Shown here piece by piece: positions 5,609 through 40,274 of a DNA stretch of 64,000 nucleotides (the first letter of the stretch is position 1; every line of letters begins with the position of its first letter). The stretch is taken from IMG/VR virus record IMGVR_UViG_3300027733_000033; one strand, 5' to 3'. The notes under the pieces were generated by a model. That model did no database searches and was not told the origin of the DNA. It saw only the letters and a program-made list of their open reading frames with translations. A program made the position numbers and the translations under genes. The DNA comes from a virus.

Positions 5609-5610
5609 AA

Positions 5611-5649: not shown

Positions 5650-5802
5650 AGATTTCTTTTTAGTCAGACATTCTTTTCCTGGTCCAATGGGACACTCGTC
5701 AGGATCTTCGAGTGTCTCATCACTTTTCAGTTGAACATCTTCTTGTTTACATTTTTTGGCTTCCGCTAAGGTTAACGCCTTATAATCAAGAAAAGATAAC
5801 AT
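5647..5802 (-). CDS. small putative internal head protein, 51 aa (MLSFLDYKALTLAE-AKKCKQED...), not in ORF track
   Basis: Manual translation; N-terminus parallels the two upstream genes and the T4 capsid-targeting sequence. Confidence 0.65.
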   Translation of the reverse strand: MLSFLDYKALTLAEAKKCKQEDVQLKSDETLEDPDECPIGPGKECLTKKKS

Positions 5803-5804
5803 AA

Positions 5805-6812
5805 CTATTTTTTAGCCTTAGAATCACACGATTCTTCACATTCTTCGTCATCTTCTTCTTCATCTTCATCTTCATCTTCTTCTTCAGCGTCATCTTCCTT
5901 TACAGGTTTCATAGCGCATTTTTCATCTAACTTAGCAAGCAAACTTTCCAAAACTTCGTTTTCTTCTTTGGTTAGTTTACCGGCGGCTGTTTTTTTCTTT
6001 GCACGAAGTAATTTGAAATCTTCAGCATCAAGTTCGCCGCTACCGTTAGCGTCTAATTTTTTATGGTTTGGGTGAGCAAACTTTTCATCAAGGTCTTCTT
6101 TAACAGCTTTGATTTGCTTTTTGCTTGCAGTAATGGCTTCATTATCGCCATGGAAAATTGTATAAGTAGGATCCGTATCACCTTTGAATTTTCTACTAAT
6201 TTCTCCAATATGACCGGTAATTCCTGCACCAGTGCCTTTATGAATAGTTACCTTATTTCCAATTTTATGTGCTTCATCAAGGTCTTCTTTAACATGACCA
6301 CCAGCTGGTTGTCTATAATATTTGACAGTACCTTTTTTGGCATCATGAATTGCAACTAATCCTGGAAGATTATGTTCAACTTGACCTCCGTCGTTTGCAA
6401 CCATTGCACTTGATTTTTTACCTAGACTATCAGTTTTTGATAGAACTTCTCTAAAATTCTTAGTACCATGTTCTTTTTCGTGATCAAGTCTCTTTTTAAG
6501 AATTGCATCATGTTCATCTTTACTAATCTGAACAAACCCCTTTGGTTTGCTAAATGTAGCAGCTTCATTCAGAGAAGATTCATCTAATATAACTTTATCA
6601 TCTATTGCAATAGATTTTAATTTTTTTGCAATAGATTCTGCTGATTTATTGTCGTTATGTTTTTTATAATATTCATAATCGCCAATATCCGCCATTATAT
6701 TGTCATGGTTAGAATAATGTTTTTTAATCGCAAGAAGCTGTTCTTTACTGAGTCCTTCATTCAGAGAAGATTCGGCTAATACCTTTTCTTTGAATTGAGC
6801 AAATGTTAACAT
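5805..6812 (-). CDS. putative internal head polyprotein B (targeting-like N-terminus, LNE/LDE linkers, acidic tail)
   Basis: MLTFAQFKEKVLAE; ESSLNE x2, VKEDLDE x2; KOW-like and EF-hand-like (LDANGSGELDAEDF) segments. Confidence 0.75.
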   Translation of the reverse strand: MLTFAQFKEKVLAESSLNEGLSKEQLLAIKKHYSNHDNIMADIGDYEYYKKHNDNKSAESIAKKLKSIAIDDKVILDESSLNEAATFSKPKGFVQISKDEHDAILKKRLDHEKEHGTKNFREVLSKTDSLGKKSSAMVANDGGQVEHNLPGLVAIHDAKKGTVKYYRQPAGGHVKEDLDEAHKIGNKVTIHKGTGAGITGHIGEISRKFKGDTDPTYTIFHGDNEAITASKKQIKAVKEDLDEKFAHPNHKKLDANGSGELDAEDFKLLRAKKKTAAGKLTKEENEVLESLLAKLDEKCAMKPVKEDDAEEEDEDEDEEEDDEECEESCDSKAKK

Positions 6813-6813
6813 C

Positions 6814-7611
6814 TTAATCCTCTAATTTAGCTAATAGGCTTTCTAAAACTTCGACTTCTTCTTTAGTCAATTTTTTATCAAATTTAGACGGGCGGCTTTT
6901 CAATGCTTGATCTTCTTCCCAGTCTTTTTGGCTTACATAATGTTTAGATTTTTCGTCAGCTTTGCCATTGTATTTTTTGTCAAATTTAGAAGGACGACTT
7001 TTTAAAGCTTGGTCTTCTTCCCAATCTTTTTGGTTAACGTGAACTTCGTCTAAAGATTCTAATGAATATTCTATAACATCATAGCCTTCTTTAACACCTT
7101 TGACTTCAGATACTTTGTATTTGATGCCATAATATTTTTTTTCGCCAGGAGACAATCCTTTGTTTAAACGTTTAGCATGAGCGGCGGCATCTTCTTTGGT
7201 TTCATGAGTTTTAACATGAGTTGGTCCACCACTTCCGATAGAACCACCATGTCTATGAACAGCAAACGCTTCATCTAATTCTTCTTCGTCTAATTTAGCT
7301 AATAGGCTTTCTAAAACTTCAATTTCTTCTTTTTGAAGTTTTTTGTAAGCAACATTCATACCTTTAACTCTTTTGGCTTTAGTTGCTCTAGCTTTTTCTT
7401 CATCAGATTCGCCGCTTTTAATTTTACTAGCATTAAAACTGTTAAGACCTGCTCTTTGTTTTCTAGCAGCTCCTTCAATATCTCTTTGTGCATGAAACGC
7501 GCTGTCCGCAGATTTTTTCATGTAAGAACCAAGCGTACCTTTAGATAATTCGTCTAATTGCTCTACTGATTCTGCTAATACCGCTTCCTTGAATTCATTG
7601 TAAGATAGCAT
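6814..7611 (-). CDS. putative internal head polyprotein A
   Basis: Start MLSYNEFKEAVLAE at 7611 with AAGGA SD; LDE linkers; KEExEVLESLLAKL x2; QKDWEEDQALKSRPSKFDKK x2. Confidence 0.75.
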   Translation of the reverse strand: MLSYNEFKEAVLAESVEQLDELSKGTLGSYMKKSADSAFHAQRDIEGAARKQRAGLNSFNASKIKSGESDEEKARATKAKRVKGMNVAYKKLQKEEIEVLESLLAKLDEEELDEAFAVHRHGGSIGSGGPTHVKTHETKEDAAAHAKRLNKGLSPGEKKYYGIKYKVSEVKGVKEGYDVIEYSLESLDEVHVNQKDWEEDQALKSRPSKFDKKYNGKADEKSKHYVSQKDWEEDQALKSRPSKFDKKLTKEEVEVLESLLAKLED

Positions 7612-8080
7612 CTTTTTTTCCTTTCTTTGGTTTGATGATTTGTGGTTTAACGTATCCCTCAGGGAAATGCGGCATAGGGAAAAACCCTGCTTCAACTATT
7701 TTCTCAAGAGTGATGTTTGGATAATCAGTTTCAAGAATCTGATCTTTTACTAATACTAACACCCGCGCTTCGTCTTTATGCATATTCTCGAGAGTCTGAA
7801 TAAACAAAATTTCTCTACGTGCACTTTTAACAGCGGGATTACAAAATTTCTCTAATCTTTTAGCTTCATAGGTTAAATTCGTTGGAGTCGTACCAATTGG
7901 TGATACGTTCTCTTTATAAGGACATTCCCCGCGTGGAAGTAAGAATAATGCTTTTGGGATATAACCATAGCCAAAAATAAATTTTAAGGCGTTATTATCT
8001 AAGTGTTGCTTCAAGGCTGCTATAGTATCTTTAGCAGAATTAATGTCTTTCAAAATCTCTGGGATAGTTTGTTGGCTCAT
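7595..8080 (-). CDS. conserved T4-like hypothetical protein
   Basis: LPRGECPYK...RREILFIQTLENMHKDEA.VLVLVKD pattern recalled from ORFs next to rnh in T4-like genomes. Confidence 0.65.
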   Translation of the reverse strand: MSQQTIPEILKDINSAKDTIAALKQHLDNNALKFIFGYGYIPKALFLLPRGECPYKENVSPIGTTPTNLTYEAKRLEKFCNPAVKSARREILFIQTLENMHKDEARVLVLVKDQILETDYPNITLEKIVEAGFFPMPHFPEGYVKPQIIKPKKGKKDAILQ

Positions 8081-8106
8081 TTGAATCTCATATAGTTTAA
8101 CATATA

Positions 8107-8115
8107 TTATTTAGT
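8107..8115 (-). promoter_or_regulatory. T4-type late promoter (ACTAAATAA)
   Basis: Same (c/a)TAAATA motif precedes gp13, gp18 and gp22 in this window. Confidence 0.7.
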
Positions 8116-8142
8116 TTATTTCATTTTGCACGACAGCTAAAA

Positions 8143-9042
8143 TCATTTAAAACTTTCGACTTCGTCCAACAGCAATCTGCAGTTATTTTTCATAAAATAC
8201 TCCATAATTCCGTTCAAATCACACTTAGGTTTTAACCCGTTAAACTCATCTAGAATTTTAGTTTCAACCCATTCTGGAATTTTATCAAGGTTAACTAATA
8301 GCTCGTTTCGTTGCCAGTTTCTACGTTCTTCATCGTTACGACAAGCTTCATACCCTAACTCTAGGAATTCGTCTAATCTTTTTCTTGATACCGGCGTTTG
8401 TCTAATGCCATTAACAAAACAGTCGTCACGACTAAAGATATTCGGCACACCATCGCCACCATCACCTCTGACCGTATGTTCTAGCAGTTTAGCCTTAACT
8501 TCTTTTTGTGTAGCAACAATAGCCTTTTTTGTCATATAGCTCCATTGTGATACATTTTTGTATTTTTGAAGTTGAATAAAGTCATTATCCGCTGAAATAA
8601 TCATATACGGCTTAGGGTCGGCGTCAAAAAATGAATCACCGATATCATTAGTTTGGCTCCACTTAGCTAAGACTGAGATGATATCATCCGCTTCAGCTTC
8701 TTGAATCTCGATGACTTTGAAAGGAAATGTTTCTGATAACTCTTTTTTGACAGTTTCCAAAGCCGAAAACAAACCCGCCCAGTTAATATCAGAGTTATCC
8801 CTACTTTTTTTCCTGTTAGCCTTATAGTGTTCAAAAACTTCCTTTCTCCAGTATTTTCTTCCATCGCACGCAATTACAACTTCTCCATATTTTTTACCGT
8901 ATTTTTTCTTGTAAGATAGTATCGTCGACAAAATAGTATGCCGCGCTAAATCCGTAATTTTTTCATCACTCGAATTCTGCAAATCAGATTTAAATGCTAA
9001 AATGTTTGAAATCGCACAACCCGAAAAATCTATAATAATCAT
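8143..9042 (-). CDS. rnh: RNase H / 5'-3' exonuclease
   Basis: IIIDFS, YWRK..F.HYKANRKKSR, EADDII, ISADNDFIQLQ, GDGGDGVPN motifs. Confidence 0.93.
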   Translation of the reverse strand: MIIIDFSGCAISNILAFKSDLQNSSDEKITDLARHTILSTILSYKKKYGKKYGEVVIACDGRKYWRKEVFEHYKANRKKSRDNSDINWAGLFSALETVKKELSETFPFKVIEIQEAEADDIISVLAKWSQTNDIGDSFFDADPKPYMIISADNDFIQLQKYKNVSQWSYMTKKAIVATQKEVKAKLLEHTVRGDGGDGVPNIFSRDDCFVNGIRQTPVSRKRLDEFLELGYEACRNDEERRNWQRNELLVNLDKIPEWVETKILDEFNGLKPKCDLNGIMEYFMKNNCRLLLDEVESFK

Positions 9043-9045
9043 TTT

Positions 9046-9318
9046 TTAATCCTTATCTGATTCGTATGGGTCAAAAGTTCCCATGAGACAATTGAGCTTA
9101 AACTCTTCTACCATCCAAAGTGCTGACTTAGCATCAACCCCGTTAGACGATATCAACATTTGCCCGCCCTTAGTATAAACTATAGATAAAACGTGCTCAA
9201 TATCATCAGACATTTCGTTCATGTATTGGTAATAATCTTCAAGCATTTCTTTATTAGTTTCTTCTAATTTTTCTTCAGAAGATTTTGTTTTGCCTTTCAA
9301 TACAATTAAGTCACTCAT
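9046..9318 (-). CDS. hypothetical protein
   Basis: ORF track; AGGA SD. Confidence 0.6.
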   Translation of the reverse strand: MSDLIVLKGKTKSSEEKLEETNKEMLEDYYQYMNEMSDDIEHVLSIVYTKGGQMLISSNGVDAKSALWMVEEFKLNCLMGTFDPYESDKD

Positions 9319-9333
9319 TATAAATTCCTTAGG

Positions 9334-9732
9334 TTAAGTGTTTGGGTCAATACCTAGCATAGCTTTCGCTCTATCTACCGCGCCGGTTTCAGTTAAGTAC
9401 ATAAGTCCTAATTTAAGTAGCATAGGTGCTCCCGACCAATCAGAATAACAACATGCATAAAAGTCTTCTTCACTAAAGCATGGGTAATAATACACGGCGT
9501 TCACGTCATCAGGTATCTCGTACAAACCGTCAGCAACCTTAAATCCATTCACATCTATAACCTTAGATGCTATTCTATAGGGTTGATTAGGTATTTCAAA
9601 TGAAGGCATAAAACTACATTTTATCCAAGATTCTTCTGTTACATCATAATATTCTAGGATATCCCAAGGCGTTTCGCTAACCCCTGCTCTTTTTGCTATT
9701 GCTGAAATAAATTCAAAATAAGGCGATTTCAT
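9334..9732 (-). CDS. hypothetical protein
   Basis: ORF track; likely start MKSPY. Confidence 0.6.
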   Translation of the reverse strand: MKSPYFEFISAIAKRAGVSETPWDILEYYDVTEESWIKCSFMPSFEIPNQPYRIASKVIDVNGFKVADGLYEIPDDVNAVYYYPCFSEEDFYACCYSDWSGAPMLLKLGLMYLTETGAVDRAKAMLGIDPNT

Positions 9733-9733
9733 A

Positions 9734-10669
9734 TTATACCCCAAAACTGGCTAATGACGCGGTTGATTTAACTTTAACGGTTCTTGGTTTTCTAGTCTTT
9801 TTAGCCGGCGCAGGTGCTACAACAGGCTTAACCTTTGGTGTTCTAGGCTTTCTAGTTTTAACCGGTTCAGGCGCAGGTTTAGGCGTTTTGGCTACCTTTA
9901 CAACTTTTACAGGTTTAACCGGCGCGACTTTAGGTTTGACCGTTCTAGTTTTTCTAGGTTTAGGTGCAGTCATAACGGCACAAGAATTAATCATTTTATC
10001 CAGTAAGTTTGAATAAGATTTTAGTTTAGCCTTACCAACCTTTGCGTAAGATTCATTCAGTTGTTCGCATTTACCGGCTAATGCTTCTTTAATTTCAACA
10101 CTCAATTTTTGTAGATAAACAGATAATCCTTTAATAACCGCAGGAGATTTTCCTACCAAATTATATTTAAACTGGTATGCAGTTGGATAACCGCTTCTAA
10201 TAAACTCATCCAACTCATCCTCAAATATAGAAATCTCAGAAGCAACTTTTGCTTTGATATTTTCTTGAACGTTTTGGGTAACGCCTACCGCCGCATGAGT
10301 TTCAACCCGTTCAATAGGAACATACTGTAGCAATTCCTCAGTTTTGGTTTTAATGTAACTGAGTTCTCTATCTTCAAGAATAGCGCCGTTAGATAAAATT
10401 CTAGACAACGCGCCTATAGTATGAAACTCGTAATCTGGAATATCATCTAATTTAGATTTTAATGATTTATCGTTCTTAGCAATATACTCAACAGCCCACT
10501 TTTTACACTCTTTATTTGAGTGGTATGCGTTATAAAAATTCAGCGCTTGGATTAGCGTCATTTTGTAGTTTAGAATATTGATTTGTGGCTCACCAACACC
10601 CTTAACAGATTTGATAATTTTTTCAACAAGTTCTTTGTTTTTCTCGGTTTTTGATTTTTTAATAGCCAT
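9734..10669 (-). CDS. hypothetical protein with Lys/Pro-rich (histone H1-like) C-terminal tail
   Basis: ALNFYN and EQLNESY motifs; KPRKTRTVKPK-type repeats; own sigma70-like promoter at ~10706-10741. Confidence 0.7.
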   Translation of the reverse strand: MAIKKSKTEKNKELVEKIIKSVKGVGEPQINILNYKMTLIQALNFYNAYHSNKECKKWAVEYIAKNDKSLKSKLDDIPDYEFHTIGALSRILSNGAILEDRELSYIKTKTEELLQYVPIERVETHAAVGVTQNVQENIKAKVASEISIFEDELDEFIRSGYPTAYQFKYNLVGKSPAVIKGLSVYLQKLSVEIKEALAGKCEQLNESYAKVGKAKLKSYSNLLDKMINSCAVMTAPKPRKTRTVKPKVAPVKPVKVVKVAKTPKPAPEPVKTRKPRTPKVKPVVAPAPAKKTRKPRTVKVKSTASLASFGV

Positions 10670-10751
10670 AATATTTACACCGGAGTTATAGTTAACTAGA
10701 ACAACTATTATACTATATTTTTATGAAAAGTAAAGCTTTATTTTAGGTATG

Positions 10752-10777
10752 CAAAAGCCGACTATTAAGCCGGCTTT
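10752..10777 (-). terminator. rho-independent terminator
   Basis: AAAGCCGG/TCGGCTTTT hairpin of the recurring type. Confidence 0.7.
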
Positions 10778-11347
10778 GACGTTAGATGTGTGTATAATTA
10801 TGTTTACTATACGACGCGACATAATTCACATTGTTTATCCAAAATGGATCAGTGTTTTGAATATCTACTGCTAACCGGTTAGCTATAGCGGCAGTATGTA
10901 TCACTTTATGAATATCAAACTTAATATCAGCATCTTTGATTAGATCGTATTTCATATGAACGCTTTGTAAGTTATCTGCTTCAAGATGCCTCAGTGAATT
11001 TATAGTGGCGTTAATTAGGGTCGGATTTGATACTGGAGATATAACCATATTGTCCTTTTTTTGTCGTGTACACAGATTTGTAAAAAGTGATAAAATCTAA
11101 TATGAACATAAAAATAATCATACTCAATATCAAAAATGATTTAAGCCGTTGCATCATGTTTTTCTAATTGGTAACACAGTTTCTCCTGTTCTGTTTGCGT
11201 ATAGATACCGCCTAACTTTTTACATGTTTCTTCAAAATGCTCATAATCATAATACAATGTTCCTAATGCTATGACAACATATAGCATTACAGCAATACTA
11301 ATTATCCAAACAATTTGTAATTTAGTTGTGCTTTCAAATTTCATAAT

Positions 11348-11554
11348 TTATTTTCCTCTGGCTGCTAACATAGCATCAGCAAGACCGTAAGCCAATTTTG
11401 CGATGTAGTCGTGGTTTTGATTTAAGTTTTCGTATCTGGCAATGATAGTGGGAAGCGCTTTAGCCGCGAAATAATCGCGCAAGTTCATCCCGTCACTATT
11501 TTCGCTAGGAAACGCCTTTTCGCGATACGGTGTATTGTAATTGTAGTCATCCAT
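11348..11554 (-). CDS. conserved small phage protein (LRDYFAAKA family)
   Basis: GMNLRDYFAAKAL...AYGLADAMLAAR motif. Confidence 0.75.
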   Translation of the reverse strand: MDDYNYNTPYREKAFPSENSDGMNLRDYFAAKALPTIIARYENLNQNHDYIAKLAYGLADAMLAARGK

Positions 11555-12353
11555 AATTATTTAACCTCTTATGATAGTAAGGAATTGGTTCTAAAAGCTG
11601 GGCGAGTAAACAGTGTATCCTCAGGAATTAATTTACTTTTATACAATCTGAACCTATCACAAATAAACTCTTCATCAGTGTCCCATATTCCATAACAATA
11701 AGTAGGTTCTGATACAAAGTAATAAAGTTCAAACAAATCGGTTCCAGTTTTTGGCTCTAACGCTAGGTATCTAAACTTAGGATCAATGTCTTTCCAGATT
11801 AATTTTTCATCAATCTTATCAAAATCAAATATCTTTTGTGTAAGGTTATTGTTAAGAACCTCATTAAATAAATCATTCAATTCCGACCAAGAAATAATAG
11901 CCGTTATTTTATTAAGAATCTCATCTACTCTATCTTTATTCATCTTTCACCATTCCAAGAGTTATTTCACGCCCAATAATAGCCTTTTCAATTTTAAGAT
12001 TAAGTATTCGTTCACGCGCCCGTTCAACTTCTTCTTCCTTCCACTTTAGCCGCGTCGTTTCAGTAGCCAGCTGATTACAAATAGAATCAAACTTCTCTCT
12101 AATATCATCCATATTTGAATACCCTGTTAGCCGGTTTATGTTTAATTAATCTAATAAGGACAGACTCATCAACTTTCATATCCTCGTTCATAAAATCAAA
12201 TAATCTGACTTTGAATTCTCTTAAGGTAATACCGCCTATAAAATCCTCAAAATACAGTTCACATAATTCCGCTAAGTTGATGTTTGGATCAGTTTCATCA
12301 ACGTCTTTTAAGAAAAACAGTTTCTTTCTTAGTTCTACTACAGTCAGCATAAT

Positions 12354-12692
12354 TTAATCCCATAAGTTGTAAAAATACTTAGCAAGTAAATCTATCCCAG
12401 CTTTAATTTTTGTATCCTTGACATCATCGCCTAAGTACATTTGATGTGTAGGGTATTCTTTAAACGCATATATCATGGTATCAAGCACATCATCCCAGCG
12501 CTTTCTATTTTCTTCTTCAGTAAATTCTTCAGAAGCAAACGCGCTTGGGTAGCCTGTACTTGTTTCCTTATACTTAACTAGCATAGGATGAATAATTCTG
12601 GATAAGGTAATATCCATATCCCAAACGTCAGAATCATCAATTACGATAGTTTCTTCAGGCGGTATAACGGTGTTATCAATTAATACTTTCAT
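12354..12692 (-). CDS. conserved phage hypothetical protein
   Basis: D.WDMD.TLSRII.PML..YK...GYP...WD.VLD.MI.AF...G..L..KYF.NLWD pattern. Confidence 0.7.
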   Translation of the reverse strand: MKVLIDNTVIPPEETIVIDDSDVWDMDITLSRIIHPMLVKYKETSTGYPSAFASEEFTEEENRKRWDDVLDTMIYAFKEYPTHQMYLGDDVKDTKIKAGIDLLAKYFYNLWD

Positions 12693-12707
12693 ATTGGTAC
12701 CTATAGA

Positions 12708-12787
12708 ATATTTTTAAGCGCTTAACCTCAATTCACGCCCGACTAAGCTATTATACGCGTGCAGGAGTAAAAAGTAAAGTTTTATTT
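12708..12787 (-). repeat. class-2 promoter element (AAATAAAACTTTACT..TATAAT, then AGCYTAGTCGGGCGTGAATTGAGGTTAAGCGCTTAAAAATAT)
   Basis: Four near-identical copies in the window. Confidence 0.85.
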
Positions 12788-13261
12788 TACATCAAATGTT
12801 TCTTTAATTATATCGCGAATCCGTTCTAATGCATCATAAGTCAAATCAGCGGCTAACTCACCAACTGGACTGTTACCTACAGAAATAGGATATTGCTCAA
12901 TGATATTTAAACATTCTTGAATAACTAATCGAGCAAAAAGTTCTTCATCAAATTTTTTACCTTGACCATAAGAATTGCCATACGCATCCATTTGATTATA
13001 ATATCGCATGGCTTTATTTTTAAATTCATTAATTTTATCGTTCATAAGCCTACCTTTGGAAAATAATGTTTTTTGACCCAGTTAATACAATTTTGGTCGC
13101 ATTCTAAATCAATTGGTTCATGTTCTTTACCGTTGCGATTTTTGTACCATGTTTCAATATTATAGTACCAGAATCTTTTATCAGTTTCATTGAAAGTATG
13201 GGTTGACTCTATGATAGTAAGGATAGCGCCGGTTAATTTCAAATCTAACATTTTATTCTCC

Positions 13262-13672
13262 TTAAATTATTCCAGCAGGGTATTGTTCAACTCGGTAAAT
13301 TTCAGCTTTGTTTTCATCAACAAACGAACGCAATTTGTCAAAAAACTTATCCATTTTGTTCAATAAATCTTTTTCATTTTTAGCGGTAAATTTTCTGAAG
13401 GGTAATTTAACGGTATTCATCGCATAATATGAATCTTTTTCAGGGTTAAGCGATAAGCCGCCCGCGATTAATTTTACTGTAAATTGTTCATCGTTTTGTT
13501 GAATTGATAGCACAGTGTGCATAGGATCGTTTTCACGAATTTTATTAGCACACAATTCAGTTTTACCGATTAAACCCAAACGGATAAAACTATAATTTTT
13601 GCCCAACGAAGCGCTGTTTTCAGCGAAATAGCCATTAGGGAATTTGTTTAAGAATAATTGTTCAATTGTCAT
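13262..13672 (-). CDS. hypothetical early protein
   Basis: ORF track; SD-led start MTIEQ, in frame with the cassette ATG at 13711. Confidence 0.7.
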   Translation of the reverse strand: MTIEQLFLNKFPNGYFAENSASLGKNYSFIRLGLIGKTELCANKIRENDPMHTVLSIQQNDEQFTVKLIAGGLSLNPEKDSYYAMNTVKLPFRKFTAKNEKDLLNKMDKFFDKLRSFVDENKAEIYRVEQYPAGII

Positions 13673-13677
13673 TTTAC

Positions 13678-13755
13678 ACTCTCCAGATAATTCATTAAGG
13701 TTTAACTTCATTAAGATCTATTATACTCGCTTTTTTCCAAAAGTAAAGCTTTTTT
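13678..13755 (-). promoter_or_regulatory. class-1 early promoter cassette
   Basis: Same repeat motif. Confidence 0.85.
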
Positions 13756-13758
13756 TAC

Positions 13759-13766
13759 TATAAATA
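13759..13766 (+). promoter_or_regulatory. T4-type late promoter TATAAATA
   Basis: Exact T4 gp55 consensus upstream of the plus-strand gene pair. Confidence 0.75.
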
Positions 13767-13797
13767 ATTAAAAATAATTTAATAAGGTCAAACTGTT

Positions 13798-14085
13798 ATG
13801 GACGACATCACAAGTTTATTAGGTATAATTTCGAAAGTTGGATTTCCTATAGTATCTTGCGCCGCCGCCGGTTATTTTGTGTTCTTGACGATAAAATTTA
13901 TTTTGGACACGATATTACATGCAATTTCAGAATGTAACGTTATAATTGAGAAGTTGGATAAAAGGGTTAATTATATGACTAATGATATGATAAAATTAGA
14001 TATTTTAATATCATCTGCTTTGAAAGTAAGACCAGACATTGAAAGAATATCTAGATCCGAAGCAGCGGACACTAGAAAGGACTAA
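13798..14085 (+). CDS. single-TM plus coiled-coil late protein (holin-like candidate)
   Basis: GFPIV + hydrophobic helix + NDMIKLD; paralogous to next ORF. Confidence 0.65.
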   Translation: MDDITSLLGIISKVGFPIVSCAAAGYFVFLTIKFILDTILHAISECNVIIEKLDKRVNYMTNDMIKLDILISSALKVRPDIERISRSEAADTRKD

Positions 14086-14086
14086 A

Positions 14087-14353
14087 ATGGATATTAATAT
14101 CGTGATCAAAGCCATAGATAGTTATGGATTCCCTATAGTAGAAACTATCGGAATCGCATATATTCTATATTATGTGTGGGTGTGGACTACAACAATTATC
14201 AAACCTATTATCGCAGAGCTGAACGAATCTCTGGTAGATTTAATTGATAGAATAAGAGTGCTGGATAATGACATGATTCGTTTGCATCAAAAAGTTAATG
14301 TCATAGTAGAGCTGAGAGAAAAGAAAGAATTTAATTTGCCAGATTCTGAATAA
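14087..14353 (+). CDS. single-TM plus coiled-coil late protein (holin-like candidate)
   Basis: YGFPIV + TM + LIDRIRVLDNDMIRL; start MDINI with AAGGA SD. Confidence 0.65.
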   Translation: MDINIVIKAIDSYGFPIVETIGIAYILYYVWVWTTTIIKPIIAELNESLVDLIDRIRVLDNDMIRLHQKVNVIVELREKKEFNLPDSE

Positions 14354-14354
14354 A

Positions 14355-14388
14355 AAAATGCCCGATTCCGGTTAAGGTTTCGGGCATT
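14355..14388. terminator. terminator between convergent genes
   Basis: AATGCCCGA/TCGGGCATT inverted repeat. Confidence 0.75.
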
Positions 14389-14392
14389 CATT

Positions 14393-14656
14393 TTATCTTT
14401 TTTTCCGCTTGATATTAGACCACTTTTCAAGCTTTTCAAATTTACGCTCAGAACAGCGTAACACTTCCTCTAAATCTATTAAATCGTTTTCCTCTAATAG
14501 ATACACCATAGCTAATAAATCCCCGAGTTCTTCTGTTAACCTCGTAGAGTTTTTAACGCCCTTATACTCATCATCATATCCAAACCTTAGGATTTTAGAT
14601 ACGGCTTGGATAACCTCACCACATTCTTCTTGTAAAATATAATATAATTCATTCAT
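14393..14656 (-). CDS. MazG-like pyrophosphohydrolase
   Basis: ILQEECGEVIQAVSKILRFG...LTEELGDL motif. Confidence 0.85.
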   Translation of the reverse strand: MNELYYILQEECGEVIQAVSKILRFGYDDEYKGVKNSTRLTEELGDLLAMVYLLEENDLIDLEEVLRCSERKFEKLEKWSNIKRKKR

Positions 14657-14664
14657 AACTTTCC

Positions 14665-17274
14665 TTAAAAGAAATCTTCAAGCGATGCTTTTTCTTCAGC
14701 AGTCCAACCTAATGGACTGATTAATATATTCATAACGTTCAGATACGATTTTTCAAACATAGTATCCTTATCGATGTATTTATGTAAACCCAGCTCGTCG
14801 GGCAATTTACTATTAAACCCTATGACGTTTTCTTTAATAGGATTTTTCTTATCAAGATACAGATATTTGATTTTATTGCCGTCTGAAATTAATTCGTACT
14901 GTTTATCTAACCTTTTCTCTTTAATGTAGAAATTGTATAATAGCGCCGCCCTTACACCAATCGGAGTACCAGATAAATAGATAGAAGAATCTCCGGCATA
15001 CTTTTTACAACCATTAACGCCCGTAGGAATAGCAATTTCTTCGGCTGTGAACGAATTAAAGCGATTTTTAAATTTAGATACATGTTTTTGTAACTCCGAC
15101 TCTTTACCGTATAATACGATATCTAACGAATCACGTAATGACTCTTTCACTTTGATTGGTGTAGACGATTTAACCAACTCCAACCCAATGACCTTTTTCT
15201 TAGGTTTAGCGTATCTAACACCCTCTGAATCCCAAACAGAAAGCACATATTTTTTCTTACCGTGCCAAATACCAACGTCAGCTAATACTTCTCGCTTCAT
15301 AGACATTTTATTTTCATAGGCGTAAGTGTAAGCTGCCAGATTATCATAACACTCTGAAATGGTAGGCTGGATAATATTTTTACAAAACATATCCATAAAG
15401 TTGATAATTTCTTCAGTAGATTTATCTTTTACCGGTGAATTTTGTACAACGTCATCTAAAGCAACATAGATAGAATCTGTATCACTGTATAGGATATAAT
15501 CGACACCCACCGTACCTAATACCTGATTAATTTTTTTAGATACATGTTTACCTACCCACAACACCGCCAGTTTACCAGACATCGTAATCGCTTCAGCTAA
15601 TTTAATATCGAAGAACAAGAAGTTGGCTTCACCAAACGCACCATAACCTGAGTTCAAGATACCAATTTTATACGCCTGCTCCATAGTAGATAAAATGGCG
15701 ATACGTTTACCCATTTCTTTATCTTTAGTCAGCTCATACTGCTGCTCTAACCGAAGCATTTCCTTTTTAGCCGTATTTCTTTCATTGTAGTATAATTCCA
15801 TAATAGCAGGAATAAACCCCTGTGTATCACGTTTAAAGCACCAACCAGAACCAGAAATAGCCAACCCGTTATTAGGTAAAGGTTTCTCGTCAACAAAGTA
15901 TTCTGTATCAAAGTCAAGAAATACACCAGTTAACATTTCAGGACTGATGTTATACTGCTGAATCAAATGAGGATACAGAGATGCTAAGTCGAATGACGCA
16001 ACGCATTTATGTTTACCTATTTTTGGCTCTTTAACATACGCGCCGCGATACTGTTCTTTTTTAGCTGAACGTTTGTGTAAAGGAATAGCAATATTTTTAT
16101 CAGCAAGATAATTGTACGATAGCGACTCCCAAATACCCACAGGCGAGAATACATCTTCATAATTAATTTTAGCCGCGTATGCAATACCAATTTGAAGACG
16201 AACCATATTTTTTTCATCTTCAAGCTGAGTAATCAACTCTGTATCGATTACGTTATAGTCTACAAACTTATTCCATGATAACTGCTTAATTACACTGCCC
16301 AGTCTATTATAATCAGCACTATTTTCGGGTAACAACAATTGTTCATAGGCTAACTTTTGAATATCATTACCGTCTTTATCAGGAATAGGAATACCAAGAT
16401 AAAAATGTTTAAACCCATCAAACTCGTTATGTTCAAGTTTAGCGTGACCCAATACTTCCTGCGTGATGAAATCTAACCTGTAAGACTCATACTTAGTCTG
16501 AGCATACTTTTTAAACAAATCCATATAATCTAAATTTGCGATACCATACAATCTGATGGTGATATTTTTATCTTCACCCTCTTTAAGAAAAGCCTTACCT
16601 GATGGGCTTTTGGGTGGCGCTCCTTTAACTATACTGAATGGTGATAGTTTATTAGCATAATCTTTGCCGATAACCTTTACCATTCTATTATACAGATATG
16701 GAATATCGAAATAGTTTGAATTCCAACCGGTAATAATATCAGGATAGTCATTTTTCCAAAAGTCAACGACTGCGCGAAGTAGCGCCTTTTCACTATCAAA
16801 ATGATGGTAATTAGTCAAATCGGACGTGTAGTTATTACAGCCAAATGTATGTTTGGTTTTTGTGTTAAAGTCAATCAATGTGACAAGTAATACTTCTTCA
16901 ACCGGATTTTTATAATCAGGAAAGCCGTTTTCAATCGTAGTCTCGATGTCAATCGCTAATACCCTAATATCATCCATATCAAAATCAATCTTTCCTGGAA
17001 ACTCTGAACGGATAAACTGATTTGTGTAATTAGTGCACCCATGTACACTAAAGCCGCTGACATGTTTATAATCATCTATAAATTTATCTGTATCTTTCAT
17101 CGTTCCTGGCTGGATAGGATAAACAGATTCACCTGTCAATAAGGTTTTAAACTCAGATGACTTATCTTTAGATGCGCTGACATAAAGAGTAGGCTTAAAA
17201 TCAACAACATCTGTGCCACTTGTGGATACACAATAAATTTTATCGCCATATTTAAAAACGTTTTTATACATCAA
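14665..17274 (-). CDS. 43: family B DNA polymerase
   Basis: DIET (ExoI), GWNS..FDIPY (ExoII), YNVID (ExoIII), SFDLASLYP, K...NSGYG, YSDTDS motifs. Confidence 0.97.
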   Translation of the reverse strand: MMYKNVFKYGDKIYCVSTSGTDVVDFKPTLYVSASKDKSSEFKTLLTGESVYPIQPGTMKDTDKFIDDYKHVSGFSVHGCTNYTNQFIRSEFPGKIDFDMDDIRVLAIDIETTIENGFPDYKNPVEEVLLVTLIDFNTKTKHTFGCNNYTSDLTNYHHFDSEKALLRAVVDFWKNDYPDIITGWNSNYFDIPYLYNRMVKVIGKDYANKLSPFSIVKGAPPKSPSGKAFLKEGEDKNITIRLYGIANLDYMDLFKKYAQTKYESYRLDFITQEVLGHAKLEHNEFDGFKHFYLGIPIPDKDGNDIQKLAYEQLLLPENSADYNRLGSVIKQLSWNKFVDYNVIDTELITQLEDEKNMVRLQIGIAYAAKINYEDVFSPVGIWESLSYNYLADKNIAIPLHKRSAKKEQYRGAYVKEPKIGKHKCVASFDLASLYPHLIQQYNISPEMLTGVFLDFDTEYFVDEKPLPNNGLAISGSGWCFKRDTQGFIPAIMELYYNERNTAKKEMLRLEQQYELTKDKEMGKRIAILSTMEQAYKIGILNSGYGAFGEANFLFFDIKLAEAITMSGKLAVLWVGKHVSKKINQVLGTVGVDYILYSDTDSIYVALDDVVQNSPVKDKSTEEIINFMDMFCKNIIQPTISECYDNLAAYTYAYENKMSMKREVLADVGIWHGKKKYVLSVWDSEGVRYAKPKKKVIGLELVKSSTPIKVKESLRDSLDIVLYGKESELQKHVSKFKNRFNSFTAEEIAIPTGVNGCKKYAGDSSIYLSGTPIGVRAALLYNFYIKEKRLDKQYELISDGNKIKYLYLDKKNPIKENVIGFNSKLPDELGLHKYIDKDTMFEKSYLNVMNILISPLGWTAEEKASLEDFF

Positions 17275-17295
17275 AACTCCTTACCAAAAAGACTA

Positions 17296-17325
17296 ATTAT
17301 ACTTTGTTTGTTGCCTAAAGTAAAC
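17296..17325 (-). promoter_or_regulatory. sigma70-like promoter for gp43
   Basis: TTTACT-17nt-TATAAT on minus strand. Confidence 0.7.
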
Positions 17326-17892
17326 CTACACACCATGAACTATCATCATAGCATCTAAGGCACAGTCTGCTGTAGGGTGATGCTTTAATACATTATCTCT
17401 ATTGAATCCTTCAAATTTGACTTCACAATATCCATTTTTGGAAGTAGAATGTAATAAATCAACGGCGGTTCTAACGTCACGATACATGTTGTATGCGGTA
17501 ATCCTTTCAACGCCTACCGCCTTACATAAACTGTCAAAAACCATTTGGTCTAACGAACCTCTAATGAATACCTGTTCTTTTTCTGGATTAGGCGTTTTGC
17601 TTTTCATCCAATCTTTAATGATTTGAATACCGGTAAGCGCCGATACATCATTTTTATGTGGGTATATGCTAAACTCTTTTGCTTGTTCGCATTGTTTAGA
17701 CCACCATTCCATAGTATCTTTGGATGATGTTCTACCATATTTTTGAATTTGTTCTTTAGCGTCAAATTTGACAAACACCCCATTTTGAATCAAACTTTCA
17801 TAAGATGCATCAACGTCAACATAAACCATACCGGCGGATAATACCACCGCAGTAGATTCGGTGTCAGTTGTCTCTATATCTAATAAAAACAT
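17326..17892 (-). CDS. dexA: DexA-like 3'-5' exonuclease (DEDDh)
   Basis: LDIET, TMEWWSKQ, RDVRT, H...DCALD motifs. Confidence 0.85.
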   Translation of the reverse strand: MFLLDIETTDTESTAVVLSAGMVYVDVDASYESLIQNGVFVKFDAKEQIQKYGRTSSKDTMEWWSKQCEQAKEFSIYPHKNDVSALTGIQIIKDWMKSKTPNPEKEQVFIRGSLDQMVFDSLCKAVGVERITAYNMYRDVRTAVDLLHSTSKNGYCEVKFEGFNRDNVLKHHPTADCALDAMMIVHGV

Positions 17893-17900
17893 AATATTCC

Positions 17901-18119
17901 TTATTTGTAAATAAATTTTTGGGGACGAGTTTCATAGGTATTTTCTGGAGAAATAGAGGTCTTAAACTTTTGAACAAAAAGACGTTTGGTTTTAAATCCA
18001 GTTATCCATTTTCCATCTACTAAGGTTGGAGAAAACTCGAACCAGTGCCATTTATGGTCAGTATCTTTGCATAAATACCGCGCCCAGTTAGGAGCGGTTT
18101 CCCATTTAGGTTTGCTCAT
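17901..18119 (-). CDS. hypothetical protein (W..AP.WA.YL..D...WHWFE family)
   Basis: Recurring small phage motif; ends TYETRP. Confidence 0.6.
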   Translation of the reverse strand: MSKPKWETAPNWARYLCKDTDHKWHWFEFSPTLVDGKWITGFKTKRLFVQKFKTSISPENTYETRPQKFIYK

Positions 18120-18498
18120 TAAGGTAATCCGCTACACATTCTAATGAATAAAATACAGAACCCAGATTCAGTTTAACCATATCAGCAGTTGCATAAAGCG
18201 AATGGAGCATTTGTGGGTCGAATAATTCAGTATCTTCTAACAAAATTGCGAATATGGTTTTCCATGGTCGCTTATTAGAATCATCAATGGCTTCAGCTAT
18301 AGAGTAAACGCCTTTAATTTCCGGTGTAATAACGTATAGTACAAAGTCACACTCATTTCGTTGAGTTAACTCCTCAAGTCGAGCTTCTTCGTTCCAGTCG
18401 TCAACAACAGGATTAAAATACTCGATATCAAGCATAGGAATTAATTTATCTCTCCAAGTTGAACCGTTACACGTGCCGCCTAAAAATACTCTTTTCAT
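18106..18498 (-). CDS. nucleoside 2-deoxyribosyltransferase-like protein
   Basis: VFLGGTC..STWR, YFNPVVDDW, YSIAE motifs. Confidence 0.8.
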   Translation of the reverse strand: MKRVFLGGTCNGSTWRDKLIPMLDIEYFNPVVDDWNEEARLEELTQRNECDFVLYVITPEIKGVYSIAEAIDDSNKRPWKTIFAILLEDTELFDPQMLHSLYATADMVKLNLGSVFYSLECVADYLNEQT

Positions 18499-18591
18499 TG
18501 ACCATCATCCCAAATAAAATAAACAAACACCCATGCCACGAATAACGAAAATAATATTACAACTTCTGAATCAGTAATTTCGTTCATAATG

Positions 18592-18720
18592 TCACCAGCG
18601 AGAGTAATGGTGATGATGGTGTGGGACGTAATAATAGCCGCGATAATGATGTGGATATGGTGCGTATGTGGCGCAACCGGTTAATAATAGCGCTATCATA
18701 AATAAGATATATGTTTTCAT
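18592..18720 (-). CDS. small His/Tyr-rich lipoprotein, 42 aa, not in ORF track
   Basis: MKTYILFMIALLLTG-CATYAPYPHHYRGYYYVPHHHHHYSRW; lipobox LTGC. Confidence 0.65.
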   Translation of the reverse strand: MKTYILFMIALLLTGCATYAPYPHHYRGYYYVPHHHHHYSRW

Positions 18721-19092
18721 TAGAATAGTTCCTCGTATTGTTTGATTACAAATAGATAATATGGAAATGATATTAAAATTCCAGCATTACAATCTAACGG
18801 ATTATAAAACCTTTCAACAATATTATATATTGGGTTTCCTGTTTCATCGTCGCTTTGAATGACAGTAGAGTATTCCGCTTCATAATAAGATACGTCATCA
18901 AAGGTATCGCCGTTTTCGTTATATTTGAAAATTTCAGGCTTATTTCTCATCATATAACGATAATCGCCTTCATCATATATCGGAATCCATTCTACTTCAG
19001 TAGCATTAATCCTAACTTTATAAGGATAATCCCCGCCTAAAGTTAATCCTTTATTATTACCATCAACGTATAAATTGAATGGGAGTTGCATA

Positions 19093-19293
19093 TTATACCC
19101 CAAATTGTAAGGTATAACCTAAAACTTTCAGCGCCGCCTTTGCTTTACGTTTTGCTTCAGTTTTAGTGCTACCATTGAAGTATAACTTTTCCATAGAGTA
19201 ATATCCTTCAATTGGGACATACACTTTAGCAGTAAAAAGTTTTCCAAGAATTCTTGAACGGGTTTCAATAATTTCAGCGGTTACAGTAGACAT
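19093..19293 (-). CDS. hypothetical early protein
   Basis: SD-led start MSTVT; in frame with the cassette ATG at 19329. Confidence 0.7.
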   Translation of the reverse strand: MSTVTAEIIETRSRILGKLFTAKVYVPIEGYYSMEKLYFNGSTKTEAKRKAKAALKVLGYTLQFGV

Positions 19294-19298
19294 TTTAT

Positions 19299-19373
19299 AC
19301 ACTCCAATTAATTTAAGGGATAACTTCATTAAGATCTATTATACTACTATTTTATGAAAAGTAAAGCTTTATT
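19299..19373 (-). promoter_or_regulatory. class-1 early promoter cassette
   Basis: Same repeat motif; terminator hairpin at 19394-19417 upstream. Confidence 0.85.
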
Positions 19374-19422
19374 TTAAATTATTTTTAGGCATGAAAAAGC
19401 CGACATATAGCCGGCTTAATTA

Positions 19423-20064
19423 CTAGTTGCGAACCAAAATTACATTATGCGTATCGCTTTTATCACCCCGATAAATGAATCCGTTAGAAAAGAATACAGA
19501 ACGATCGTCATCAGTTCCATCACAAGCCCAAAATTCTCCATCAAGGTTCAATTTCAGCAATTCTGTTGTCGTAGGTAAGCGCCACCCATTATGGCAATGC
19601 TCTTTAGCGTATTCAACTGCACCCCACCAATTTTCTTGAATAATTTTTGGAGTTTGTGAAGTAAATTTACCAATAGTTTCCAAATTGTTAGCAACTGCTT
19701 CAATAGCAAAAAAGTTTAGCATTTCATTATAAGCAAAATCAATTTTAGCATAAATAACATAGCATGCCCAAGCAGGCGCTTCGTTATTTACAATGTTTTT
19801 AAACATGGCATCTTCAATGCAGTAAAAACTAAAATTTTCTAAACATTCTCTGCGCGGTTGGCTACGCATACGATTTACCGCAATCCGTTTACCTAATTTT
19901 TTACTATACACGTCAACCTTAGAAGAAAAGGCTACACCAAATGTCACAACAGGTATTTTTGAGCCGTTAGCGCCTGTCATATAATCTGTTTCGTATGCAA
20001 TAGTGATAACATTAGTTCTTGCTAAACTGGTATCACCTAAAAAATAATATTTCACATTGCTCAT
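19423..20064 (-). CDS. two-domain protein with C-terminal DUF1566-like domain
   Basis: N-terminal D.YSKKLGKRIA..R motif; C-terminal W..AVEY...GWRLPT..EL...FW...VILVR. Confidence 0.65.
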   Translation of the reverse strand: MSNVKYYFLGDTSLARTNVITIAYETDYMTGANGSKIPVVTFGVAFSSKVDVYSKKLGKRIAVNRMRSQPRRECLENFSFYCIEDAMFKNIVNNEAPAWACYVIYAKIDFAYNEMLNFFAIEAVANNLETIGKFTSQTPKIIQENWWGAVEYAKEHCHNGWRLPTTTELLKLNLDGEFWACDGTDDDRSVFFSNGFIYRGDKSDTHNVILVRN

Positions 20065-20072
20065 AATTTATT

Positions 20073-20143
20073 ACTCCAATTTTATTAAGGTTTAACTTCA
20101 AGATCTATTATACTACTATTTTATGAAAAGTAAAGCTTTATTT
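20073..20143 (-). promoter_or_regulatory. class-1 early promoter cassette, variant lacking the leader ATG
   Basis: TATAATAGATCTTGAAGTTA: 3-nt deletion relative to the other copies. Confidence 0.8.
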
Positions 20144-20475
20144 ATTATCAGGAACCCCACCTAGGATTTCAATACATTCATTAACCCTAACAAAAATAGA
20201 TATCGGTATTTCATATTCGCATACATAATTAAGAAGTTCTCGTACTTCTTCCAGTTTTTCTAAAAGAATTTTGTCATTCATAATTTACCCATATAGCCGC
20301 TTAATTTCAAATTCATAACCCTTATATTCTTCGATTGCTTTTTCCATAGCAATTTCTGCTGATTCTCTGGTTCGATACAAACCTTCAGTAAATGTTTCTT
20401 CAGGACAGGATACTGCATTCCATCCAACAACTTCATATATTTTTAAATCTTTATTGAAATCGTCAGTTAATGAAC

Positions 20476-21006
20476 TCATAATTCCACCTCCCCGCTGTTC
20501 AACATACCGCAAGCACGTTCTGCATCACTTTTTGTTGTAAAATATACTGCTATTTTTTGGTATATACGAGTAACATCAATAGACCATCTGTCGTCATCAA
20601 CAATAAACTCAATCGTATATTTAAAACTCGATACGTCTGACCAATCCACCACATCATCACCGCATAATTCGTCACGCAAAGCCAGTAAACGATTGAACTT
20701 GCGCATCTCAACAGATGCTTTTTCTGCTTGCTCTCGGGTTGGGCGTTCATGCCCAAATTCTTTTGTTCCAACCCATGACGGTAAATTAGATATTTTACCA
20801 CCCGAATTAATGTTGCACGAACCTCCAACAGGCTGCCATTTAACCGGTTTACGGCGGTATTCGTATCCTTCATACCAATTAAAATTACCGGTAACACTTT
20901 CCCACTTATCATACATTTTAACTTCCCACAACTCCCATGGGGTTTTATTAGTAAATGCGTCTTTTGCATATTCTAACATCAAATCAGCGTGTTTATGTCC
21001 ACTCAT
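20476..21006 (-). CDS. hypothetical protein
   Basis: HKHADLMLEYAKDA...PWELWE...EYRRKP pattern seen in phage proteins. Confidence 0.65.
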   Translation of the reverse strand: MSGHKHADLMLEYAKDAFTNKTPWELWEVKMYDKWESVTGNFNWYEGYEYRRKPVKWQPVGGSCNINSGGKISNLPSWVGTKEFGHERPTREQAEKASVEMRKFNRLLALRDELCGDDVVDWSDVSSFKYTIEFIVDDDRWSIDVTRIYQKIAVYFTTKSDAERACGMLNSGEVEL

Positions 21007-21731
21007 TATTTACACCCAGCATGATTATCAATTTTATCTTTAGGGATAAAATTTAGTTTATGCTCACTGATACAATATTCATATTTATTTCCTCTCCAAG
21101 ACACTTCAGCTTCACCGGCTAACTCCGCTTGCCCACGAGTATTGAAAACACCAATCACATAACTATGATTTTCACGGTCACCCCAACGTAAGGCTTCAAC
21201 TACAAATAAAGAACCTTCCGCATATTGGGTTTCAAAGGCGGTGTATGTTTTATTTACTGAAGGAACAACAAATTCAGCAGTTTCCATTTTAATCTCCAAA
21301 TATAATAGTTTCAGCGGCTTTTTCAGCGCGGATAATTTCAGATTTTATTTTTACTAGAGTGTTAAGGTTATTTTCTAAGGCGGCGGCAATTTTATGCTTA
21401 ACCGGATCGCCACTTGCTTGATATTTATCTACCAGTTTACATCTTTTTTTAATTGTTTCATCTAAAGTATCAAGCACAATTTTCATATTAGACTTTTTGA
21501 ATCGTTCCATTTTTATTCGCCTGTTTCGCATTTTGCTGAGTAACCTAATAAACCGTCAACCAACGCCTGTTCAATTTCTGGTTTATGCTGTTCAAGATAA
21601 AACTCACACTCAGCATAGGATTGAAATTCCATAGTAATTTTTTCTGGAGTGCCGTGGTCAACTTGAGACGGTGTAAAATATAGTAAAAATGTTAAAACTA
21701 TTGCTTCCATTATAATATCCTCAAATTAAAA

Positions 21732-21908
21732 TTAAAGAGTAACAACCATATAGCGCATACCGTAGTATGATTTTTCACCAGGAGTCAGCATTTTATTCCA
21801 GTCTTTTGCCCGTTCCTTTGCTTCTTCTTTAGTTTCAAAAATGAATAAGATATTATCTTTACCACTTTTTGAACCGATACTGCCGCCTTTCAAATATATA
21901 CCAAACAT
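21732..21908 (-). CDS. small early protein, homologous to a module of polyprotein A
   Basis: GGSIGS...ETKE.A...AK..NK.L.PGEK.YYG shared with 7087-7269. Confidence 0.8.
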   Translation of the reverse strand: MFGIYLKGGSIGSKSGKDNILFIFETKEEAKERAKDWNKMLTPGEKSYYGMRYMVVTL

Positions 21909-21914
21909 ATCAAA

Positions 21915-21990
21915 CACTCCAATTAATTCAAGGGATAACTTCATTAATATCTATTATACTCGGTTTTATAGAAAAGTAAAGCTTTATTTT
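21915..21990 (-). promoter_or_regulatory. class-1 early promoter cassette
   Basis: Same repeat motif. Confidence 0.85.
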
Positions 21991-22070: not shown

Positions 22071-22112
22071 TATATGTGAAAAAGCCGACAATTAAGCCGG
22101 CTTGTTATGAGT

Positions 22113-40273: not shown

Positions 40274-40274
40274 G

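Follow-up and report, generated by a model that had tools for sequence, protein, structure and literature searches.

A 64,000-nucleotide stretch of viral DNA (IMG/VR record IMGVR_UViG_3300027733_000033, hereafter the window) encodes the same small domain, recognisable by its GGSIG..PGEKxYYG signature, at two places: as a module inside a 265-residue open reading frame (ORF A; 6814..7611, minus strand, with its ATG at 7611) and as a free protein of 58 residues (21732..21908, minus strand, coordinates including the stop codon) that lies behind an early-type promoter. ORF A starts with a leader resembling the capsid-targeting sequence (CTS) of phage T4 internal proteins, and on balance we lean towards a reading in which ORF A is packaged, its module is excised and injected, and the leaderless paralog, made early in infection, engages the same kind of ligand.

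The module of ORF A and the free protein are homologous

The embedded copy occupies residues 115-175 of ORF A (7087..7269, minus strand) and translates to AFAVHRHGGSIGS...KYKVSEVKGVKE; its core covers about 7111-7269, and a short tail, SEVKGVKE, closes it with a VKE site. The free protein reads MFGIYLKGGSIGS...RYMVVTL. The initial annotation, made from the letters of the window, had estimated that about 27 of 58 residues are shared by the two and that the borders of the module coincide with those of the free gene, and both statements were borne out when the translations were compared by BLASTP: 27/55 residues are identical and 34/55 positive, with one gap of two residues, and the similarity is significant (E 1e-16). 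Since the alignment opens one residue past ELDE in ORF A and spans nearly all of the free protein (residues 1-55 of 58), the coincidence of borders is real. When either copy was searched against the whole window by six-frame tblastn, it matched only the other one (E 3e-12 and 2e-12), the next matches having E > 1. Every residue that is conserved in at least 90% of 122 aligned family members (G8, G9, S10, G12, A30, A34, L41, G44, E45, K46, Y49 and Y53) is kept by both copies.

The 70-residue ORF call that contains the free gene is identical on 20 contigs from several samples, and the codons of the free gene differ across contigs by synonymous changes only. Compared with its ortholog in the relative L023, the module displays 6 synonymous and no non-synonymous changes, and compared with those in L013-L015 it displays 22-23 synonymous and 12 non-synonymous changes, part of the latter difference coming from an indel in the tail. 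Since synonymous changes outnumber non-synonymous ones in these comparisons, the module is under purifying selection.

The domain occurs free, behind leaders and in multi-module proteins

A word-index search gave few relatives, including a 92-residue protein starting with MNTYKDLLE, a 185-residue protein starting with MKSYKSFLNE and a 1370-residue multi-module protein, and a scan of IMG/VR for the domain gave 38 loci. An exhaustive HMMER search with a profile built from three sequences then detected 538 clusters at E<=0.001 and 220 at E<=1e-10 (representatives of clusters at 50% identity), in proteins of 58 to 1370 residues. Among the 152 members that were classified, 29 were binned as free (two of them through a scoring artefact), 37 were short with an N-terminal extension and 86 were multi-module proteins. 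Many of the 37 short extended members bear plainly CTS-like leaders, such as MKTYRDILE, and, of the members extended by 15 residues or more at the N-terminus, 61/111 have an (L/I)xE motif with its Glu at position 7-20, vs 22/110 control ORFs from the window.

The family search had been proposed as a way of finding out how often the domain is free and how often flanked by LxE motifs, and both states were found. (L/I)xE motifs are enriched about 3-fold at both borders of the domain: one lies within 13 residues upstream in 67/120 members (56%, vs 17% expected) and one within 20 residues downstream in 44/76 members (58%, vs 24% expected), the expectations being the background (L/I)xE rate within the same proteins. 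As would be expected of polyproteins, predicted protease sites are therefore found at the borders of what appear to be independently folding units that also exist in free and single-domain forms.

Close relatives of the window carry a near-identical module, from E|AFAVH to VKE|, between differing neighbours. The order of modules in L014 is the same as in ORF A; in L015 and L016 the GGSIG module is joined directly after an EF-hand-like module that belongs to ORF B in the window; and in L048 an LSKxTLGSY module follows the GGSIG module instead of preceding it. In every one of these contexts an xxE site stands directly ahead of AFAVH and VKE follows the domain, and what is exchanged as a unit is the stretch from one predicted cleavage site to the next. 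The earlier claim that the segments of ORF A are autonomous proteins is thereby well supported as far as the autonomous unit is concerned, by its free, leader-borne and embedded forms, by its exchange among contexts and by the motifs at its borders. A prohead protease gene (Peptidase_S77) is present in 3/5 other phage records that contain the domain, including the one that is 97% complete; PF03420 was not found in three fragmentary relatives, which are uninformative as fragments. Altogether, the domain defines a new and widespread family in uncultured phages, tied to capsid-targeting leaders and putative cleavage-site linkers. In one family member (L029:4001-4168; IMG/VR 3300025122_000010) a TAA interrupts the domain in frame (FGVYL*GGSIG); the gene may be a pseudogene, the stop may be recoded, or the sequence may contain an error.

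ORF A resembles a T4-type internal protein

According to its translation, ORF A is made up, in this order, of a leader, an LSKGTLGSY module, a linker, the GGSIG module, two QKDWEEDQALKSRPSKFDKK repeats and a linker, and it matched no Pfam or PHROG family. The leader, MLSYNEFKEAVLAE (7570..7611, minus strand), ends in an LxE site followed by S and resembles (M-L-S-Y-N-E-F-K...LAE) that of T4, which is MKTYQEFIAE. The N-terminus of ORF A is thus of the kind found on T4-type internal proteins, with about 10-20 residues ending in (L/I)xE. In T4, the CTS is a 10-residue N-terminal peptide that guides internal proteins to the prohead core before gp21 cuts it off after Glu (PMC9026906, PMC5694885), and the internal proteins of T-even phages are diverse cargo with the CTS as their sole common feature (PMC3012670).

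Past its leader, ORF A consists of short segments parted by acidic linkers that bear (L/I/V)xE motifs. One such linker, KEExEVLESLLAKLDE, is found at two places in ORF A and at one in ORF B (335 residues; 5805..6812, minus strand), which is a second CTS-led multi-module protein with the leader MLTFAQFKEKVLAE; the linker is also repeated as DNA, over 65 nucleotides at 85% and 69% identity. Altogether, the window contains four CTS-like leaders, the other two being those of ORF C (113 residues; 22113..22454, minus strand; leader MLSYNEFKNLNE) and of a 51-residue ORF (5647..5802, minus strand; leader MLSFLDYKALTLAE).

Other segments of these proteins recur as well. The LSKGTLGSYMKKSA... segment of ORF A (7549-7611 and 7280-7548; residues 15-110) is itself a recurrent module, and segments like it, ELSPATMKSYVKKA and ELSPKTLSSYKDKA, are found twice in the 1370-residue protein P0006, with another located after the GGSIG module in L048. 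In ORF B, the segment KLDANGSGELDAEDFKLL (5922-6041; residues ~258-297) is EF-hand-like, with weak Pfam EF-hand matches (E 0.02-0.04) that stay below the cut-off.

The phage that carries ORF A also encodes a T4-type protease, scaffold and capsid protein (PF03420, T4_CASP and Gp23). The gp21-type prohead serine protease (Peptidase_S77; 39623..40348, minus strand) matches PF03420 with E 3e-29 (102 bits vs a cut-off of 27) and is the enzyme that would be expected to cut at (L/I)xE. The scaffold protein matches T4_CASP with E 3e-48, and the major capsid protein is of the gp23 type (37382..38728, minus strand; Pfam Gp23, E 5e-141), with a Gp23 domain that begins at residue 76. Immediately ahead of this domain, an N-terminal propeptide ends in GMLNE|AAPA, and we take LNE|A to be the position and the motif of T4 gp23 cleavage. 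Since a gp21-type protease, a T4-type scaffold, Gp23 and a propeptide ending in LNE|A are all present, we assign a T4-like head maturation to this phage.

The gene run that includes ORF A may be expressed late. The gene at 7595-8080 heads this run, in which it is followed by ORF A and then by ORF B, and a motif scan found a late-promoter-like TAAATA (8108..8113, minus strand) 27 nucleotides ahead of its ATG. Within the 60 nucleotides upstream of genes, TAAATA occurs 15 times vs about 6 expected (~2.5-fold), and the capsid and scaffold genes are likewise preceded by it, 25-36 nucleotides upstream. The TAAATA motif ahead of the run therefore fits late expression of ORF A, without proving it.

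The free gene lies behind a repeated promoter and leader cassette

Upstream of the free gene lies a sigma-70-like promoter, TTTACT-N16-TATAAT (21953..21980, minus strand), that we recognised as a repeated motif: TTTACT-N15-17-TATAAT is present in 20 copies in the window, vs 0.26 expected by chance, and 18 of these are on the coding (minus) strand. The promoter that the initial annotation had placed ahead of the free gene was thus confirmed as one copy of a repeated element. T4 early promoters are very strong sigma-70 promoters with extra conserved positions, and the motif of the window fits that general description (PMC2988021). No TAAATA was found ahead of the free gene when the 60 nucleotides upstream of genes were scanned.

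Comparison of the repeats showed that a conserved leader separates this promoter from the free gene (21909..21952, minus strand), with a GGAG at 21917-21920 that lies 8 nucleotides ahead of the ATG at 21908. The leader, ATGAAGTTA...TTGGAGTG, follows 10/18 of the coding-strand promoter copies, and the ATG of the gene then lies 42-47 nucleotides past the -10 hexamer. In its longer form, the cassette consists of an A-rich block, gcTTTACTTTT...AGTATAAT, and then the leader of about 45 nucleotides, agatNtTAATGAAGTTAnnCCTTAA..TTGGAGTG, which ends in the Shine-Dalgarno (SD) sequence; 18 minus-strand cassette copies are spread across 312-36615, for example at 21909-21980, 19294-19365 and 1396-1466. 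A mini-ORF (MKLNLNGV-like) starts at an ATG in the leader, and its frame in relation to that of the gene differs from cassette to cassette.

In other cassettes the leader is out of frame or stopped, whereas in that of the free gene it is in frame and free of stops, which is why gene callers give a 70-residue product starting at ATG 21944. We rejected this start: ATG 21944 has no SD sequence, lies 8 nucleotides past the -10 hexamer and falls in a leader that is conserved as DNA in varying frames. The true start is therefore 21908, as had been proposed, with ATG 21944 lying within a conserved untranslated leader.

A terminator-like GC hairpin followed by a T-run (22079..22102, minus strand) comes after ORF C and parts it from the promoter of the free gene, and the same hairpin precedes the promoter of ORF C. 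Within 22455-22525 (minus strand), an early-type promoter and a TAAATA, the latter 28 nucleotides from the ATG, both stand ahead of ORF C, which also has a CTS-like leader and might thus be packaged and expressed early as well as late.

The domain is small and basic, with a predicted fold

The structure prediction that had been suggested as a check gave a confident result: the AlphaFold2 model of the free domain, computed with the 122-row alignment, has a mean pLDDT (predicted local distance difference test) of 94, with three strands and two helices, one of 13 residues and one short, and predicts a beta-beta-alpha-beta fold. Among the 122 aligned copies of the domain, 98% have a net positive charge and the median isoelectric point (pI) is 9.4.

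The domain belongs to no Pfam family, PHROGs gave nothing for ORF A or the free protein, a sequence profile search of the PDB gave no match at E<=1, and Foldseek found nothing below E 3 when the model was compared with the PDB. In BFVD, the sole clear match was a family member inside a 535-residue uncharacterised protein, and searches of the ESM Atlas by shape and by features returned unnamed clusters, plus a DUF7336 cluster at a template-modelling (TM) score of 0.62 by shape. By sequence, DUF7336 (PF24024) missed its gathering threshold of 25 bits (18.4 bits for the 70-residue ORF call, 17.2 bits for the 58-residue free protein) and was matched by 4/122 members at E<=0.01 (best E 4e-4), and DUF2188 (PF09954) was matched by 6/122 members (best E 2.4e-4) and by neither window copy at E<=0.01. 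DUF7336 and DUF2188 resemble our domain in being small beta-beta-alpha-beta proteins of phages or bacteria that have an 'xF.TKEEA...A' helix, but the matches to them are weak and exclude the GGSxG and PGEKxYY signature, and the relation is at most distant. The WGR domain scored E 0.35 (11.5 bits vs a cut-off of 22), and no WGR chain was among the listed fold matches, an absence that is no evidence against a WGR fold.

A wide fold search with VIA-align gave best Z scores of 5.0-5.1 (a topoisomerase III fragment and ClpS) and a Z of 4.0 for a Cas3-complex chain and for the PaoP5 nuclease; since all of these are in the score range of common arrangements, we did not use them for function. Pfam searches of the 86 multi-module relatives returned only one DUF3175 and one weak HypA match, which offers no guilt by association. 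The initial annotation had expected an anti-defence or host-takeover factor, and this remains speculation that finds no support here, as no fold, family or fusion partner indicates a function.

How the two copies may be used

In the reading that we favour, ORF A would be a T4-type internal, capsid-packaged protein, which its leader would take into the prohead core. The gp21-type protease would remove this leader and would probably also cut the acidic (L/I/V)xE linkers, and cutting would free a basic beta-beta-alpha-beta domain of about 60 residues (AFAVH...VKE) that would enter the next cell with the DNA. Expression of the leaderless paralog would begin directly upon infection, driven by a standard cassette of early promoter and leader. 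We infer packaging, excision, injection and early timing from motifs in the DNA and its translations. Since the invariant GGSxG loop and the PGEKxYY..Y patch are kept in both copies, these most likely bind the same kind of ligand, and since the domain is almost always basic and would be co-packaged with DNA, our preferred candidate for that ligand is a nucleic acid or a host factor associated with one.

Several observations weigh against this reading. On the side of expression, the late-promoter call depends on a 6-mer of only modest enrichment, and an early-type promoter at 10707-10734 reads towards ORF A with no terminator noted between them, so that expression of ORF A may not be confined to the late phase. 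In other phages, the free forms lie inside operons that lack recognisable promoters, and the early timing is therefore not generalisable to them. Concerning excision, acidic linkers often contain LxE motifs, not all of which need be cleaved, and we know of no case in which T4 releases several functional proteins from one internal protein. As for function, no fold match exceeded Z 5.1 and no fused domain was informative.

Other observations concern the kinship of the two copies. With the module of its own genome the free copy has 49% identity, against 57-63% with domains embedded in proteins of other phages, and the two copies are not neighbours on a tree that has 67 columns and is poorly resolved. 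We accordingly rejected a recent intragenomic duplication, and the two copies appear to be old paralogs, whose targets may have become different. A single copy of the domain is present in each of five other phage records, one of which is 97% complete, so that a double supply would be a feature of this lineage rather than a general property of the family. For the 21 free rows, the tree requires 19 changes of state, about as many as when the labels are shuffled (mean 19.4): either free and fused forms interconvert readily, or the tree cannot resolve them. The earlier claim that the domain is supplied twice stays plausible to the extent that one genome holds two paralogs, one with a packaging leader and one without, and has a T4 precedent in Alt and ModA/ModB; its two copies are not recent duplicates, and the pairing does not extend to the five other records.

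These points bear on four other explanations. It is possible, though we doubt it, that the old paralogs have diverged to different targets or target variants, so that different delivery means different jobs. The higher identity of the free copy to the embedded domains of other phages than to its own module, the single copy in the five other records and the scatter of the free state over the tree would all agree with this; yet all invariant residues are common to both copies, which argues that the core biochemical activity is probably the same, and the tree that supports divergence is short and poorly resolved. To a similarly limited degree we can envisage that the domain is a housekeeping DNA- or core-associated protein that acts on phage DNA, by charge neutralisation, DNA condensation or protection of DNA ends, with the early copy coating replicating or incoming DNA. 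The nearly universal positive charge and high pI of the domain fit such a role, T4 internal proteins are also basic and embedded in packaged DNA (PMC9026906, PMC3012670), and most of the weak fold likenesses (Z 3.5-5, not significant) involve alpha/beta domains that bind nucleic acids, RRM-like ones among them. A conserved GGSxG and PGEKxYY loop patch, however, suggests a specific ligand over generic charge, and the family is patchy and its context hyperplastic, as those of accessory genes would be.

That ORF A is packaged and is no polyprotein seems to us less likely still: only its leader would be removed, the GGSIG domain would act within an internal protein of 250 residues, and the LxE-rich linkers would be acidic hinges or redundant sites that help to clear propeptide pieces. 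Precedent speaks for this, since virion-retained proteins of T4 lose terminal propeptides only and the multiple motifs of phiKZ and SPN3US proteins fall in propeptide regions (PMC9026906, PMC5694885), and many family members are long (500-1370 residues). It does not explain as well why the ~3-fold (L/I)xE enrichment is located exactly at the borders of the domain or why the unit shuffled in relatives equals the unit between sites, and CTS-led single-domain members show that a lone domain suffices as cargo. Finally, we give practically no credence to the idea that the similarity arose by chance or from low complexity, or that the free ORF is no gene. Only the short length of the sequences speaks for it, and it is refuted by the BLASTP E value of 1e-16, the 538 related clusters and the confident fold, as well as by the conservation of the 70-residue call on 20 contigs with synonymous changes only in the free gene and by the presence of an SD sequence and a promoter.

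Relation to known systems

T4 internal proteins are the classic case of proteins that are injected with DNA against host defences, and few of them are characterised. The resemblance to the present locus lies in a short leader ending in (L/I)xE on unrelated small basic proteins, with diverse cargo and hyperplastic loci (PMC3012670, PMC9026906), and in a gp21-type protease encoded in the same genome. In contrast to these internal proteins, to none of which we found sequence similarity and which carry single cargoes, ORFs A and B are strings of small modules on repeated LxE linkers.

The closest precedent for a family that is supplied twice, pre-made in the capsid and again by early expression, is that of Alt, which is injected from the T4 head, and of the related ModA and ModB, which are early products (PMC2988021). 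ModA modifies the same RNA polymerase alpha residue as Alt, yet the target ranges of the two differ (PMC2988021). This precedent would support a dual supply and also warns that paralogs using two routes need not act identically; moreover, Alt and Mod are ADP-ribosyltransferases with known targets, unlike our domain of 55 residues with no enzyme-like fold match. In phiKZ and SPN3US, many head proteins, with multiple sites and in paralogous families, are cut after Glu at x-X-E by a T4-related prohead protease (PMC5694885, PMC9026906). These ejection or inner-body proteins differ from ORF A in their A/S-x-E motifs and in the location of their additional sites, which fall in long, discarded propeptides, and no release of several folded domains from one precursor is described for them.

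The repeated cassettes of the window recall the promoter-early stem-loop (PeSL) cassettes of T4-type phages, reportedly described by Arbiol, Comeau and Krisch in 2010, where a repeated terminator hairpin and early promoter likewise flank small accessory ORFs in a variable region; relatives of the window phage also differ in the genes between cassettes. Unlike the PeSL cassettes, the cassette here adds a conserved 45-nucleotide leader with its own SD sequence.

Our observation extends beyond this locus to a new domain family, and it would belong with known kinds, namely T4-type internal proteins and dual delivery of the Alt/Mod type. The locus points to a large unnamed family, with at least 538 clusters at 50% identity, and the same domain with and without a packaging context in one genome is a natural test case. 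Since the domain is small, is predicted to fold with confidence and would be easy to express, its binding partners and structure are within reach. If excision is true, the T4 paradigm would widen from one leader and one cargo to strings of exchangeable cargo modules, and a simple rule (a leader plus LxE-bounded modules) would become available for mining injected effectors in metagenomes. A broader and more tentative proposal, which we would not put forward as probable, is that the domain represents injected phage effectors that are loaded alone behind a leader or as beads of cleavable multi-effector polyproteins, in T4-like and larger phages, and that are here backed by an immediate-early copy. 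Strings of effectors delivered by the capsid would then be a strategy of general use, whose modules are freely swapped at the linkers that hold the cleavage sites.

Other features of the window and of its relatives

From its gene content, the source of the window is an uncultured, distant T4-like phage with T4-type head-maturation machinery. The gp43 DNA polymerase is encoded by an 869-residue ORF (14665-17274) whose best matches, about 40% identical, are from cyanomyoviruses. A T4 RNase H gene is present as well, and further genes encode a clamp loader, helicase, portal, tail sheath, scaffold and major head protein. Related contigs with 93-98% DNA identity come from several metagenomes, and neither megablast of 5000-9100 nor tblastn of ORF A and of the 70-residue ORF call that contains the free protein gave a match among GenBank phages.

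The match of the portal protein (935 residues; 40848-43655, minus strand) is split in two by an HNH endonuclease region that spans about residues 427-541; this insert starts with ...DGCFDL, ends with ...VMN|S and looks like an intein with a homing endonuclease. The C-terminal piece of a helicase (5288-5608, minus strand; it matches positions 207-305 of 306 of the PHROG DNA helicase) is separated by about 26 kb from the part that holds the N-terminus (31842-33200, minus strand), and the two look like a split UvsW-like helicase. In a relative with about 94% DNA identity (L001:1-583; JGI 3300046009), an AmoC/PmoC-family gene lies beside hsp20 and phoH, upstream of both, and is missing at the equivalent place in the window (24034-25000) and in L003; its presence suggests kinship to the freshwater pmoC-phages of methanotrophs (PMC7674155).

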